A DNA stretch of 64,000 bases from Okamejei kenojei (Eukaryota), in NCBI GenBank assembly GCA_035221665.1, contig CM069137.1, positions 75,082,001 to 75,146,000 on the forward strand, given 5' to 3'. Position 1 is the stretch's first letter. Every line of letters begins with the position of its first letter. A program made the translations under genes and the position numbers. Shown here piece by piece: positions 45,679 through 57,963 of this stretch. Under the pieces are notes generated by a model. That model did not search any database. It had not been told where the DNA came from and worked only from the letters and a program-made list of their open reading frames with translations.

Positions 45679-46343
45679 AAGTTAAGAGACAGACAGTGAC
45701 AGGCGCAAGCAGATTTTACAAGCTTTACAGAAACATCCTAAACCAAATAATCCCTAATGTTAATTCTAACTTTAACCTTTTAGCCCTCGAGCCTCCCCCA
45801 TCCCCCATTCCCCCTTTTTGACTGTGTCTTGACCTTGAGACCGGTCTCACCTTGTTGTGTTCTGAAATCTAATTGCTGTGCTGTAACCGGGCCAGTTTCA
45901 TTTCTCTTCAGCTGAGTGGCGCACGTATTTCATGTTTTCTGTGATGCGGCCCGCCTAATTGTAATGAGAGGGTGCTGAATATATTAATCCGCATGTTATC
46001 TTTTTTTTCTCCCCCCCGATCAGTGTGCCCTCTACTTTCCTAAAAAAATATCATTTCTCAGCACAGACGTGTTGTCCGCGAAGGCAGTAACTGTAAACGG
46101 CAGTCTTAAGATCTCTTCAGCCGGCTTACAACTGATCTGCGGTTTCAAAGTGAAGCAGTCACAGCACCGAGGCAGTGGTGCACCTTCAGTATTAGCGAGT
46201 ATGTTGCACGGGGCATCAGTGCACACTGGACCTGCATTGCCATCATGAACAGTGTGTAGACCGAGCAAGTCAATAATACCACTCCAGAACTGCTTAAGCA
46301 TTTATTTTGTTTATATTCATTGGCCACTCTTGAGTCTGCACAG

Positions 46344-46996: not shown

Positions 46997-47292
46997 CAGC
47001 GCCTGGTAGACGCCGAGGGAGACAAACTTACAGCCGATTCCAAACTCTGGAGCTGGAGAAGGAATTCCTGTTCAATCCGTATCTGACTCGAAAGCGAAGG
47101 ATCGAGGTTTCTCATGCTCTGGGACTGACCGAGAGACAGGTGAAGATCTGGTTTCAAAACAGGAGAATGAAATGGAAAAAGGAAAACAACAAGGACAAAT
47201 TCCCAACCTCTCGGAACGACGAGGAGGGGGAAGAGGTCAAGAAAGAACAGGAAGAGCCCGAGCAGGACACATCAGAGAAAGAGACCAAGTAA
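46997..47292 (+). CDS. HOXD8: Hox-D8, exon 2 (homeobox)
   Basis: Tandem acceptor tttag|cag| (alternative start 47000); [69 protein letters not shown]. Confidence 0.96.
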
Positions 47293-47690: not shown

Positions 47691-47711
47691 CCCAACAACA
47701 TGAACTGCCTA
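47691..47711 (+). promoter_or_regulatory. miR-196 complementary site in the HoxD8 3'UTR
   Basis: CCCAACAACATGAACTGCCTA versus the reverse complement of miR-196a (CCCAACAACATGAAACTACCTA): one deletion and one G:U wobble. Confidence 0.9.
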
Positions 47712-48324
47712 ATAGAATGGATTATTTGGAATGTATTGCGAACACACTTAATTAATAATAGAAAAAAACAGTGCACTTGCGATGTGTCTTAATTACTGTG
47801 CGTGTAAACTAATTGGTGGTGTATTGCGGCTGGAAATTCTCAAAAATTACCTATTCTCCGAAATGCAGTTAATAAACATAAGCAAAAAAAAAAAAAACAC
47901 AAGGTATTCCGCAGCAATAGTCACTTTTTATGATGGTCGAATGTGATTAAATTAATAAATGTTGATTAAATTTAGCTGCGTACTTGTTTCATTTTACGAC
48001 CAGTGTCCCAAAGAAAAATAAAAGTAACGTGTGTTTCGGTAGAGAATCATTATGGGTTGATTGGGAATTAGGTCGCTGCAATTATTATTTAGCCAGCTTT
48101 TTGTGGCTGTTTTCAGTAGTTTCTGCAAGATTAAATCGAATATACTTTATTTTTGTTTACCTCTGCAGTCACGGGGTGCCCATCTGCCATACGGCACGGC
48201 AGATCTGATCGTTGGATGAAAAAGACTGGAGATGGTGTATTTTTACATGCAGTTATAAAAGTTAATGACAGGGTTGATGATTAGAATATTAGTTTATCTA
48301 TGCCCTAAGTTAAATAGTCTTCGG

Positions 48325-48530
48325 GTGGCCATTGGCCAGTCAGATCACATGCCTGACTCGTGTGTGGCTAAAACGACGCTGTAAAAGTTAGTGTTTTGTG
48401 TAAAGCTGCGGTCTACTGTACACGTATATCAGCAAATCTCGTAAAACCGACAATAAAATTCTAATACTACAAATCACTCGGCAAACTGAAGACTTCTAGG
48501 TTCCAATTTATTCTTTTCCGCTTTACAGGT
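48325..48530 (+). pseudogene. Relic promoter/5'UTR of the lost HoxD7
   Basis: ATTGG-N9-TCACATG, then ctcgtaaaaccgacaataaaattctaatactacaaatcactcggcaaa, which resembles the recalled Hox7 leader (ctcgtaaaaccgacactaaaac...ctacaaatcatccggccaaattATG). No ATG or ORF follows. Confidence 0.6.
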
Positions 48531-51029
48531 TGGAGGCGAAAGCAGAGCCTACAGTTGTCGAATAGCCTTCCATTTTGCCGTTAAACTTTACACAACCGGC
48601 GATTAAGCCACATTTAAACTTCAGCAGAACCGGCGCGCAAGCCGCATATAAGTGCTCAGCACACGAATAGACGATTTTTGATGTCCACCTCTATGCACAA
48701 ATTACAATGTCATGGTAAGGTTTAACAAAACAAAACGATGAGAGCAAACAGGAAACGATTCTGGGGAGGGGGAGGAAAAACATACCTCTACCAATGTTAT
48801 GCAAACAACTAAAAACACAATTGCTGGCAGTATAAAATTATTAGTAGCGGAGTCCAGACTCCACTCTGATAAGGCAATGTTGTTAAGATAACTTCAGAAA
48901 CAGTTTTCAGATATGGAACCGAATTTAGTCATAGGTTGCACAATTAGACCATACTTCTGCAATGACCAGCTTCTGCCAGGGACAGTTGCCAAATTAAACA
49001 CCAATTAACTATTTCAAAGCGAGAAGGGACAAAATTGCAGACTACAATTTTGTTACCATGGTTAACACAATATGTGCCATGTACCCATTAAAAAAAAAGC
49101 TGGCTTCACGTTTTACGTTAAAGCAAACATATTTGATCGAATTTAAACATTCTCAGAAAGGTCATAGTCAACCAAGCAGATAAACTCTTTCAGCAGCTAC
49201 ATCAATTTTACGTGAAGTAATATGAAGAATTCATTTTCACAATTGTCTGCTCAATCCAGAGGAGTATTCTTTGGGCGATTTTTTAGCCAGTTTTTTTCAA
49301 AACTTATTCTCACAATCTAATCACACCGCGCCAATAGGGTGGACAGTGGTGCTTCCCCCAAGCGTAATTGTGATCTGAGCCTTCTTACAGAAAAAACCCT
49401 ATCTAAAACAATTGACCATCTTTATAATCATTTTATAAACCAAATAATCAAACAGAGGGCTATGTCGCGTTTGTTGTTTTTTATGTATTGGTGAATCAAT
49501 TATTGGTGTCCGTGGCGTTGGTGTGGACAATGGTACGAGATCTGGATCTCAGCAGTGAGCTTATTCGTAGGGTTTCACTGGCGGATTGAATGGTCCAAAT
49601 ATCAAGTCGTGTTTTTGAGAAGAATTAACCTATAGAGGCTTATGAAAGGAGTTACATTTCATAATTTCATATTTTTTATAACACAAATATATCCAAAAAA
49701 CTCCAACCTTTAGAATCACGCATTAGAACCGCTTTTCGTGAATCCGTGCAACTGGATTATTTAGGTTCTGCAATCCGTTCGTTTCTTTAAAAAAAAACCT
49801 CACTTTTACTGAAAACTCTCCTCTGCATCCTGCCTACACTCCAACCTCCCCATCCAAATCCAGAAAAAAAATTCCGAAATCAAAGTTAATAGAATTTCAA
49901 AGTTTGAATATTTTATTAACATTGCGCCTCATTTTAAATTCCCGTCGCCAGCTAAAGGAAACACGGCGCATTGTATGGACATTATGAGTTATGTTTCAGA
50001 ATTCGGTGCTTAGCCATTTAATCTCAAGGGATGGTTTTGCATTTTCTCAGTAAAAATTCTTCGCGGGCTTCAGTCCAGATTTTATCAGATGATCTACCTT
50101 CTACATATCTCAATCCACGGGAAGCATGAGGCAAGGGGAAAGGGCGATGTCAAATAACTGCCAGGCACCTTCTTCTCTCCTGATGAATTTCCTCCCTCGC
50201 TGGCAACGAGAAGAACAATTACACATCAAACTGATTCAAGAATTTCTGCACTTTCATGAGCCTTAAATATATATACAAAAAATAAAGATTTGTTTTGTCC
50301 ATTTAACTTAATTTCTTGTGGGATGTGTGATTGTGACTGGGGTGTATTTCGTTTTTTCTTCTCTTCTACATTGGAATCAGCGGGGACATAATGAAATAAT
50401 CCATAGTAGTTGGAAATGGAGGCTCGATATGTTACCAGATAGCTCCACATACTGATAACCAACTTCCTCTTTCTCACCTGTGTAGAATACACCACAGAGC
50501 ATTTATTGCGAGTTGTCACGCTTTCTGCATTACTGTTTTTGTTTGAATGAATGCAGCCGCCATGGTGCAGTTTCTAACTGAGTGACCAAACGTGCTTCAG
50601 ATTCCCTTGTTTCCTATTCTTAACCCGACCAAATTAAAAAGGTTTCAGGAAATCATGTCAAAGCTAATCCGGAAGCTGTCTGACTCATAATTGCCAACAT
50701 TGGGAAATGTGCATCATACGTGCTTCATAATTTGCAGCAGTTGCTTTGGGGGGAAAATCTTTATTCTAGACGTATTGGGAACACGAACTAAAATACATTA
50801 TATTACCAAATTGCAGGGGTCTGATTGCAGTGGTGTGAAGTGCCCACTGTCGAGAGAGTTATTTCCCTTTATGTTTACGCTGTTACTGCACTTCCCCCTG
50901 TATAGTTGGTTAGAGTGTGGGTTACAATGCATGTTATATAACAAATAGCTCTTGCAAAGAACTCGTTAAAGGAAACATGGCGCTTGCGAGCTGTACTTGC
51001 GAAATCCGCAAGGAATTGCTGCGAATTCC

Positions 51030-51155
51030 TTTTTGTTTGAAGAAAATTTACAACTTTGTAATGGACCTTTTACGAGGGAGCCGGCGCTGCCATTGGCTAG
51101 TTTTGGTCATGTGAAGCAAGTAACTGCGTTCATGGCCTTTTCATGATTTCCCTTG
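51030..51155 (+). promoter_or_regulatory. Promoter-like conserved element of the Hox7-Hox6 interval
   Basis: TTTACAAC and TTTTACGA Hox/Cdx sites, ATTGG (51092) followed by GGTCATGTG (51105). It resembles an element recalled upstream of Hox6 paralogues. Confidence 0.6.
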
Positions 51156-54100
51156 TGAATATTTCACTGCATTCCGCTGCTAACTCGTCTCAAACCGTCT
51201 TTTCTGTCAGTATCTCCCCTTGCCTGCTTTTGTCGTTGGTATTTGGCGCCAGCTGCTTGGGAAAAAGGGGGAGACTTTCCGCTCTATTCGCGGTGTTCAA
51301 CCCTTTTCTGTATAACTATGAGGAAGTGATTCGACTCATGCTGGGATTTTAGCAATCTGATCTTTCTCTCAGACCTCTGACGTCTGCTAACAACCTCTAA
51401 CTTACCCTCCAACTCGCTTTACCCATTTTTAAGTTATTTTGATAATCGAAACTGTACAAATGGAATACAAAATCCACCTGGTTCCCGATCGGGGGAAACG
51501 CCATGAAACCGGTAAGTGTTTTTGCTCTCGCCTGCTCGGCTGTTGCAGACAGCAGTATTGTAATGCGTGGCAACGCCGTTGCCTTCGCTGGTTCAGTTCT
51601 AGGCAGCTGTTCTGCCAGGTCGAGAAATGCTCGAGAAATTAACAATCAGCACGACTGGTTTTCAAACGGTGTATTCTAACCAGGTCCAGGTGACCGATTG
51701 AGTATAAACTGTGGCTGTGCGGCAAATTAATTAAATATTTATTTCCCGCAATGAAACAGAGTTGCTATTCGGTCCTATATTTGCGATGATCGTGTTGCTG
51801 TAACACGACTGACATTTGTGTCCAGCATCTCCTGTGAAGATGAGTCGCTTTGCCTAGTTAAATTAAGATTATATATATATATACAACATTTATATACAAA
51901 TATATATATTTGCTACTTTTATTGCCGGTGCTGCTCTGGTGCTTGTTGGTTTTCGGGTGGGTCGCCAGTGAACCGCCTCAGTGATTGGCGGCTTGGGTCT
52001 GCGGCTTTCTATGCTCTTTTTTTTTTACCGTGTTGTGGCGGAGGGTATGAAGGTTGAACACTTTCTCTCGTCAAATGAAAAGTTGCAGCAATGAGTGATG
52101 GATTTGTGTTAACGATGCTAATAAGTCCGTGCGGCAATCTCTGGCTTTGAAAACATCGAGTGCTTTGGGATTTTGGGAGAAAAGCTCAGCTTAACATTTT
52201 AATGATATTTTATCACGTGACTGCAGTCTGCACAAATGAGCAATACTCTTAGCACAATCTTCCCGCGGTCAACATGAAGAGGTCTCTTCAATACCTTGAT
52301 GTTGGTTTGAGTAGACGACCATAGAGCTTTCTAGTGTTTTGTCATTGTGCAAATATTTTCGATTTGTGCATCTGATCAATTGCTTTCTGAAGATGTTATG
52401 CCGAGTTGTATTGGTTCATTCATTTGGATGGTGTATAAGAACTCCAATGTCTATATTCTGAGACCTCAGAATAAGGATATTCTGAGAAATGTTTATGATT
52501 TGACGAAAACTGTTCCAAATTCATGTTGGTAACTTCACAATACAAAACACGAAATAAAAGCACCGTAATCTTTATTATATTCTAATTTCACAATTTTTTT
52601 TTATTGCAACAGTCTGATGGGGAAATATGTGTAAGGTTGAAACTTGAGATATTGGTAGCGGAAAAGTAATGTGAATATTCCCATAACTGTTTCTTTATCT
52701 TAGCCAGTTGGCTGTATTTCTGCTGGTTAAATATTGGAAAAGTTCACCACTTTGCATCGGAGCTGAAGGAAGAAGTTTCTGTCCGCATGCCGTTGAAAAT
52801 CAATATAATTCGACTATGAACTAATTCATCTTTCAGACCCCATATTAGAATGGAAATATAACTATAATATATCATCCTGACCCATGTAGCATATAATAAT
52901 ATCGATGTTAGTTCACCATTGGCAATTGGTGTATATTTGCAAATGATAAATAAATTAAAATCTTATTTCTACCTGCGTCCATTTGGACAGAGTGACAGGT
53001 ACGTTGTGGAAATGAAGCAATCACGACAAAAAAAAAAACAAAAAACACACAAAGTATTGGAACCAAATAAACGTTTAATGATATTGTGAGTGTACTTTCA
53101 TTACAAAATACTTAGAAGAAGCATTTAAATTTATATCTGATTGGCGATAGCGGAGTGCACAATCTTTTGCTCCTTGGAGAAAGTAGAATAATGATCATCT
53201 CGGTTTTCAAACATTGATTGGCTTTAATTATTTTTCTTCAGTCAGATTTCATGTATGTTTCAGTCCGTCTGTGTTCGCTACAATTTGTGGTGCAGACTGG
53301 TATTCTTATGGAGCAGTTAGTCATTCAGATCTTTTATTGCAATTTTATAAAAGTGAAGATGTTAAAAATGTGTTGAATTGTTCTCGTTAAACTAAATCGT
53401 GTTTGCATCAAGTATACGCCATTCATTTTTAAATTTCAGTGAAAGGCCTCTTGATGATTTTCATGTTTGCACCACGCTTTCTACCAAATGGGTCATAATC
53501 CGGCACAACTAAATCTCGGAACAAAACAAAGATAAATTGTCATTATGAAAATAATCAGTAAGTTCATCTTTCCCAATCACGATTTAATCGACAACTTCAA
53601 AGTGGGACTATTTAATTTATTTTCAGATTATCCAAGCAAAACTTCCTAAAACATATAAAGGTGAATGTGGACATCGTTCTCTTGAGGTTTGGATATTGTT
53701 TATTGAATACCCAGAGTTTTTTTATGGAAGGTTATATCTAAAGAATATTGCTCAGAATATTTCTGAAGGATTTTTCCTCTATAATGGATCGACAACGCTC
53801 ATATGTAAACCGCCAATACAATTTCCATTCAACAATAACAACATTTCCTTTTTTAATGGAAATATTTTCAATTAAAATCTGTGACACACATAATTCGATT
53901 CTCAACAATGTTGAGTACCTTTTAATTTGCAGCGCTCATTCTCAGTTTTAAGGCATATATGCCAACATAAACAACTTCTAGCGCAAATCCCACATATTTA
54001 ATGCGGTGTATAACGGGAATCAATTTACTGCGATCCCAGAAAATTGCTCTTCTTCACAGAACCCATAAAATAATTTCCAGATCGTGATCTTCTCTCGAAA

Positions 54101-56838: not shown

Positions 56839-57346
56839 ATGAGTTCCTACTTTCTAAACTCTTTCCCAGGTCGCTACCAAAATGGCCACGATTATCAGTT
56901 GCAGAGTTATGGGAATGCCTCGTCTGTGGAGGAGCATTTTAGGGAGTCGACGATGCTTTCGGCCAGGTATGGCTATGATTACACTGGGATAGACCTCAGC
57001 ATGACTCGTTCTAACTCAAATCTTCGTGGAGACAGTGAAAGGTCTACTGACTACATGCAGACAGGCAGTAACACCTTTCACAGTTCTTCTAGTGTGAGAA
57101 CTAAGTCTCCTGATCATACCTTCAGCCCAGGACCTTTGATAAGCCCGTCAGATAGTACTATTAAAACTGGGGCTGCTATCACAGGGCCAAGTCATTCATA
57201 CCGCGGTGGTCAGGACACATCACCGGTTACCGATGAACATCTTGAGGGAACGAACAGCCCCAAACCAGAAAGTGGGCAACTAGACAAGGATTCAGCACAG
57301 CAGATGCAAATATACCCATGGATGAAAAAGCTTCACCTTAATCAAG
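56839..57346 (+). CDS. HOXD5: Homeobox protein Hox-D5, exon 1
   Basis: [25 protein letters not shown]...[12 protein letters not shown]...[13 protein letters not shown] is the Hox5 N-terminus with the YPWM hexapeptide; donor CAAG|gtacgc, phase 1. Confidence 0.94.
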
Positions 57347-57720
57347 GTACGCTCAATGCCGCCATTATATACTTTTGATATACATTTTTAATTTTGGTCG
57401 AAGTATTTTTTTAGATTGGGAAACAGAGTAACTTAATCAAAATTAATAGAGCATGGTATTTGTAAAATCATAACAGTTTGAATGAAATCAGAATATATAA
57501 GCTGTTGCTTTGAACGGTTACAGCAATCGTGTCAGGAACTGCATTTTATGCATCTTGAAAACTGAATCATGTCTAAAAATACTTCAACTTATCTATCGGA
57601 AAACTTGTCTATTTTGTTCTGTTGGTGTTGTAAAGCGCATTAAACCATTATGTCTAAAACCATATCATTTAATATATTTACACCAATGCGTGTAGTAATT
57701 AATCTTTAACTTTTTATTAA

Positions 57721-57963
<243 letters not shown>

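Follow-up and report, generated by a model that had tools for sequence, protein, structure and literature searches.

The window analyzed here, a 64,000-nucleotide stretch of the Okamejei kenojei genome, raises the question of whether the promoter and leader of a Hox gene can persist in a cluster from which the gene itself has disappeared. The gene concerned is HoxD7, for which an initial annotation had proposed a ghost downstream of HoxD8; to our knowledge, no jawed vertebrate has a HoxD7.

Genomic context of the HoxD8-HoxD5 interval

Six-frame translation of the window revealed an elasmobranch-type HoxD cluster on the + strand, with the genes in the order D13, D12, D11, D10, D9, D8 and then D5. 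HoxD6 and HoxD7 are absent from HoxD, and the gap between D8 and D5 measures 9.5 kb. D4, D3, D2 and D1 lie past the end of the window, and miR-10 lies between D5 and D4 (precursor at L018 884-955; Rfam RF00104, 72.5 bits). In the same genome, the HoxA cluster consists of A13, 11, 10, 9, 7, 6, 5, 4, 3, 2 and 1, and the HoxB cluster of B13, 10, 9, 8, 7, 6, 5, 4, 3, 2 and 1; Hox gene names were assigned from order and sequence. Among the 51 matches listed in a search of the assembly with the HoxA7 homeodomain, seven have at least 89% identity and correspond to A7, B7, B6, A6, A5, B5 and D5, and no central-class Hox gene outside the three clusters was found among the matches listed. Therefore, HoxD7 is neither in its place nor elsewhere in the assembly. 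A HoxC cluster was not seen in the assembly, either with this search or with the composite pattern described below; its loss is expected for elasmobranchs (PMC3707753, section 11).

Other observations concern the HoxA and HoxB clusters. HoxB3 exon 2 (G000:C31 ~12655450-12655950) contains heavy frameshifts in the assembly, and the HoxB1 homeobox (G000:C31 12672800-12673000) is also frameshifted; assembly error is the likelier explanation for both, over true pseudogenes. A paralogous non-coding element is located 3' of HoxA9 (G000:C2 61899586-61899678) and HoxB9 (G000:C31 12593541-12593633), with 77% over 95 nt (E 3e-10) and no HoxD match.

The upstream neighbor of the locus is HoxD8 (homeobox to stop codon, 47016..47292, +). 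Its 3'UTR contains a block in common with HoxB8 (47691..47711, +; 21/22 identical), which we take to be a miR-196 target site. The next gene downstream, HoxD5 (56839..57963, +), served as the intact-promoter control.

Organization of the HoxD7 relic

The relic spans 48330..48496 (+) and is homologous to the 5' regions of HoxA7 and HoxB7. In the three-way alignment of A7, B7 and the relic, the blocks follow a common order: CCAAT, E-box, GTGTAAA, TATATCA, a 15-nt word, ACAAATCA and the start. The CCAAT box (48331..48335, - strand), also found in A7 and B7, is read as ATTGG at 48331 on the + strand, 1.04 kb from the HoxD8 stop codon (47292), and an E-box CACATG begins at 48346, in agreement with the promoter that had been placed about 1 kb past this stop. 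The E-box region (48346..48362, +) comprises CACATG, part of 9 nt that match A7 exactly, and a degenerate CTCGTG that corresponds to the canonical CACGTG of A7 and B7. The GTGTAAA and TATATCA blocks (48398..48431, +) are invariant in A7, B7 and the relic and lie 27 nt apart in all three. They are followed by the 15-nt invariant block CTCGTAAAACCGACA (48438..48452, +), which presumably contains a site of Cdx or posterior-Hox type, and by the pre-start block ACAAATCA (48469..48476, +), which is again invariant in the three copies.

The leader quoted in the initial annotation is present at 48438-48485 and is followed by CTG AAG ACT TCT. The start codon is indeed gone, with AAG (48489) at the place of the ATG, 1.2 kb past the HoxD8 stop. 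The dead start, AAGACTTC (48489..48496, +), is identical at 6/8 positions to ATGAGTTC of A7 and B7, and beyond it similarity drops to background. The distance from the Hox8 stop to the Hox7 start is 1197 nt after D8, compared with 1581 nt from B8 to B7, where HoxB8 likewise precedes HoxB7. The statement that no ORF follows also agrees with the sequence: no ATG-started + strand ORF of at least 30 codons occurs in 48301-48798, and the only ATG within the element (48349) opens 11 codons. The initial description needs one correction: the upstream half is less well kept than the leader, and the canonical CACGTG is mutated there.

An AATAAA hexamer (48452..48457, +), found in the D copy only, is a possible distal poly(A) signal of HoxD8. 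It raises the alternative that the relic was kept as the 3' end of HoxD8, either as part of a long 3'UTR or as a distal poly(A) signal or terminator that shields the downstream genes from read-through. A T-rich tract (48500-48525) follows the hexamer, the distance of 1.2 kb from the D8 stop would suit a 3' end, and the D8 3'UTR extends to 47711 or further, provided that the block in common with HoxB8 is a miR-196 site. However, seven other A[A/T]TAAA hexamers lie nearer the D8 stop, HoxA7 carries the same blocks with no Hox8 upstream of it, and a poly(A) role leaves the promoter-order arrangement of CCAAT, E-box, GTGTAAA, TATATCA and the 15-mer unexplained. We consider this alternative unlikely.

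Downstream of the dead start, the region 48510..48720 (+) contains, at the motif level, a splice-acceptor-like site (15/18 pyrimidines, with CAG ending at 48528) and a donor-like GTAAG at 48715. These sites (48528-48715) may bound a possible 186-nt non-coding exon. No significant remains of the first Hox7 codons were found in the acceptor-like tract (best p 0.05 of 10 tests). The CpG ratio of the relic is 1.11, compared with 0.56-0.84 in plain flanks. A 34-nt unit is repeated 2.1 times (78% matches) just 3' of the relic, at 48581-48651.

Homology to Hox7 5' regions

The segment 48200-48500 was locally aligned with 32 Hox 5' regions of the same genome, with 150 shuffles as reference. HoxA7 scored 88.5 (z 21) and HoxB7 72.5 (z 16), for shuffle scores of 23.0 +/- 3.1 (maximum 33.5) and 21.9 +/- 3.2 (maximum 41.5), respectively. 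The other 30 regions scored 18-32, the next best being D5 with 32.0. The predicted alignment with HoxA7 and HoxB7 upstream regions was thus obtained. The 14-mer CTCGTAAAACCGAC has four matches in the 2.76-Gb genome, namely the HoxA7 leader, the HoxB7 leader, the relic and one unrelated place; since a reversed control pattern had 28 matches, this word alone is no evidence. The composite pattern TATCA-N6-CTCGTAAAA-N20-26-ACAAATCA has exactly three genome-wide matches (A7, B7 and the relic), compared with 0 for its control.

The upstream regions of 32 Hox genes were also scanned against 504 kb of cluster sequence, in 53,427 comparisons with a median score of 24. The scores of the relic, 86 and 70, are level with or above those of several intact pairs, namely 72 (A11-D11), 59 (A10-D10), 80 (A3-D3) and 74 (A2-D2). 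Apart from the HoxB13 promoter and a tract of low complexity, the relic is the only strong gene-less match. The HoxB13 promoter scored 68 (B13 is missing from the gene table), and other gene-less matches were scattered at 46-58. Matches of a C-rich tract upstream of B10 (up to 71) were rejected as relics, being of low complexity. No relic of the lost B11 or D6 appeared in the scan, which is blind to HoxA8 or Hox12 relics, the B8, D8 and D12 upstream regions having no match of at least 46.

The 300 nt upstream of HoxD8 (46144-46343 in the window) gave no alignment of at least 46 with HoxB8, both genes being intact. Between clusters, the promoter of the dead HoxD7 has thus been preserved better than those of the live Hox8 genes.

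The relic also has the expected syntenic place and orientation, after Hox8 and before the Hox7-6 element and Hox5. The Hox7-specific alignment, the three-way blocks, the scan and the composite pattern all uphold its descent from a Hox7 promoter and leader: the segment 48330-48496 is the relic of the HoxD7 promoter and leader.

Absence of the gene body and of HoxD6

A coding counterpart to the leader was sought in the D interval. Exon DNA of A7, B7, A6 and B6 scores 24.5-35 there, compared with 212 and 217.5 for A7-B7, and the best tblastn E value for a coding remnant is 0.11 among the matches listed. Coding similarity in the first 45-300 nt behind the dead start has p values of 0.05-0.47. In the first 60 nt past the dead start, 22/48 columns shared by A7 and B7 are kept, which is near background; the value for the intact D5 is 47/56. 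Exon 2 and the 3' sequence of Hox7 have left no trace in the D interval, and the recognizable broken coding sequence of a classical pseudogene is absent from it.

Between the Hox7 start and the following conserved element lie 2535 nt in D, compared with 4136 and 4060 nt in A and B, a shortening of about 1.5 kb. A deletion may therefore have taken out the coding part; the contrast between leader and coding sequence would then carry less weight.

HoxD6 has left no relic, the best scores of the A6 and B6 promoters in the D interval being 28 and 30.5. Similarity between the A6 and B6 promoters is as high as between those of A7 and B7 (142 and 136), yet no D6 remnant is found.

A second paralogous element

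A second, separate paralogous element (51024..51190, +) is common to the Hox7-Hox6 intervals of HoxA and HoxB. It matches the A and B intervals with E values of 4e-16 and 3e-17 (72-74% identity over 151-168 nt), has three genome-wide pattern matches, keeps 105/134 columns, and contains CCAAT, E-box and TTTACGA motifs whose spacing is constant. We assume that it is probably the published H8/7-6 four-cluster sequence. It was considered as a HoxD6 promoter relic and rejected, the A6 and B6 scores of 21.5 and 22.5 being at shuffle level. A donor-like GTAAG was noticed by eye near 51513.

Related motifs (TTTACGA, CCAAT or E-box) occur in this element and in the HoxD5 promoter, and PMC3595034 reports three elements common to all four clusters. 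Both points would suit a different account, in which the relic was from the outset a cluster-level Cdx/Hox response element, placed between Hox8 and Hox6 and coinciding in part with the Hox7 leader of A and B. The name HoxD7 relic would then say more about where the element lies than about its origin or its role. This account is met by two observations. The similarity to A7 and B7 spans the pre-start block and 6/8 start bases, and the relic is therefore the gene's own 5' end; moreover, the relic does not align to the 51024-51190 element or to other Hox promoters. We consider a cluster-level element of this kind very improbable.

Selection or neutral decay

The relic keeps 80/108 columns in which A and B agree (0.74), compared with 0.40 in random windows (maximum 0.47 in 25 windows) and with 90/114 (0.79) for the intact HoxD5 promoter. 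Retention in the other intact D promoters is 0.87 for D4, 0.69 for D10, 0.60 for D3, 0.53 for both D2 and D1, and 0.50 for D9. At fourfold sites, the D genes and their A/B paralogues are identical at 65/212 positions in the homeobox (30.7%) and at 145/403 in exon 1 beyond codon 20 (36.0%), in a comparison that left out D8, D12 and pairs with no usable partner. The corresponding divergence is about 0.7-1.0 changes per site per lineage, an imprecise distance because silent sites are near saturation.

Neutral decay was simulated at several divergences (d). The observed retention of 0.74 was attained in 31/70 runs at d 0.3, 6/70 at 0.4, 1/70 at 0.5, and 0/70 at both 0.6 and 0.72. Under the most generous neutral model, with A7 or B7 as ancestor and a 300-nt score, the observed score was reached in 46 and 76/150 runs at d 0.6, and in 4 and 11/150 at d 0.72. 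Exact words of at least 15 nt survived in 4 and 14/150 runs at d 0.5 and in 3 and 1/150 at d 0.6; the longest exact words in the relic are 17 nt with A7 and 15 nt with B7.

These simulations bear on the possibility that the relic is a functionless fossil, that is, that HoxD7 survived long in the cartilaginous-fish line, its body was deleted just past the start, and the leader is now decaying in a slowly evolving genome. The retention reproduced at d 0.3-0.4, the simulations from a generous A7/B7 ancestor and the interval shortened by about 1.5 kb are all compatible with such a history. At high d, however, simulated decay falls short, so that under neutral decay HoxD7 must have been lost late, within about the second half of the period following the split of the clusters. 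Several independent losses would follow, in bony vertebrates and in chimaeras, where no HoxD7 is known. In addition, exact words as long as those of the relic rarely survive at d 0.5-0.6, and Hox7 exon 2 and 3' sequence are without trace. A fossil with no function is accordingly improbable.

Early loss followed by continued selection is simpler, since we know of no jawed vertebrate with HoxD7. Because the relic is retained like an intact promoter at a distance where silent sites are near saturation, selection after the loss of the gene is likely. The proposal that the regulatory head was kept under selection is to this extent sustained by internal controls, on the premise of an early loss taken from the Hox inventories known to us. 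If the loss is old, the relic is a paralogous conserved non-coding element, conserved between clusters above neutral expectation.

Proposed function of the relic

The predicted RNA structure of the relic is not stronger than that of shuffled sequences (z +1.25; 185/200 shuffles fold as well), and there are no Rfam matches within the window. Since there is no fold above shuffles and no frame to translate, a DNA-level role is the most likely. In our preferred reading, selection has likely preserved the lost gene's promoter and leader as a control module acting at the DNA level. Within this reading, promoter activity appears to have slightly better than even chances, and use solely as an enhancer slightly less than even ones.

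As such a module, the relic would remain a target of CCAAT, bHLH and Cdx/posterior-Hox factors. Because the order and spacing of its blocks remain promoter-like, it probably still opens chromatin and starts transcripts; these would be non-coding or long spliced transcripts toward HoxD5, HoxD4/miR-10 and HoxD3, and a transcript start here would thereby make the relic a shared enhancer for the neighboring genes. HoxD7 itself may have been dispensable because A7 and B7 cover the protein; the control DNA would not be, if the neighbors depend on it. The CpG ratio of 1.11 and the acceptor- and donor-like sites lend mild support to an orphan promoter, and the mutated CACGTG and the D-only AATAAA speak against one. 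The 51024-51190 element has a similar motif set and qualifies just as well as a candidate start of long transcripts.

Several published systems provide a background for these proposals. According to PMC9456764, the DNA of the mouse Hoxa7 'leader' is an E-box-dependent promoter whose activity is abolished when both E-boxes are lost. Long polycistronic Hox transcripts are described in mammals, including HoxD4-D3 with miR-10b and HoxC6-5-4 (PMC1831499, in part), and the mammalian clusters produce long transcripts with non-coding first exons (PMC1831499, PMC3185001 and PMC2148072, in the portions used). These portions place no transcript start at an element equivalent to the relic. A more far-reaching scenario is that the whole HoxD7 promoter and leader have persisted for over 400 million years after the loss of their gene and today fire a non-coding or long spliced transcript, using a splice acceptor derived from what was left of the first codons; taken as a whole, it is doubtful. 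If it were true, the hyperconserved Hox7 leader would owe its conservation to a role as DNA rather than to translation, and orphan promoters would help to hold Hox clusters together.

A leader kept with no reading frame favors the DNA-level promoter view, as set out in PMC9456764, over translational control. A promoter that outlives its gene would be a direct case of control DNA shared by neighbors, and bears on the integrity of Hox clusters. Both conservation questions become testable on this single piece of 170 nt, and its deletion would remove no gene.

Comparison with known systems

Matsunami, Sumiyama and Saitou (J Mol Evol 71:427, 2010) reportedly described two elements in the Hox8/7-Hox6 region, of which one, said to be present in HoxC and HoxD too, lies immediately upstream of Hox7. 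The H8/7-6 four-cluster sequence is said to have been described in horn shark by Kim et al. in 2000. It resembles the relic as a non-coding element kept in several clusters 3' of Hox8 or Hox7; its position, however, fits the 51024-51190 element (Hox7-Hox6 in A/B), whereas the relic matches the Hox7 5' end. Three non-coding elements were found in all four Hox clusters in a 2010 study (PMC3595034). The window has two paralogous elements in the Hox8/7-Hox6 region. There is a somewhat better than even chance that the relic is one of these four-cluster elements, and it is probably already catalogued as a conserved Hox non-coding element.

No text naming a HoxD7 relic was found in the literature covered; older subscription and non-licensed papers lay outside its scope, and supplements may list the element. 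The relic motif had no match in the supplements of PMC4470032 (mostly pictures), PMC2080641 (coding alignments) and PMC3595034 (four files). A pattern scan of metagenomes gave three chance matches in bacterial-looking sequence with no Hox similarity. Since this kind of element is known and the relic is probably present in published lists, its existence is of limited surprise.

Compared with the Hoxa 'leaders' (Akirtava et al. 2022, PMC9456764), among which mouse Hoxa7 was tested, the relic similarly has a CCAAT box beside an E-box in a conserved 5' block, but it lacks a reading frame behind the block and its canonical CACGTG is mutated. The HOTAIR/ncHOXD11 element (PMC7139118) is also non-coding, has persisted in two Hox clusters from the time of genome duplication and overlaps a HoxD non-coding promoter; in contrast to the relic, it is 32 nt long, lies in the posterior part of the cluster and does not originate from the promoter of a lost gene. 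Caecilian psi-HoxD12 (PMC4470032) and the chimaera Hox14 pseudogenes (PMC3707753) resemble the relic in marking, at the syntenic position, a Hox gene that has been lost. However, these are pseudogenes or gene remnants, whereas the relic consists of the regulatory head only, preserved at the level of a working promoter.
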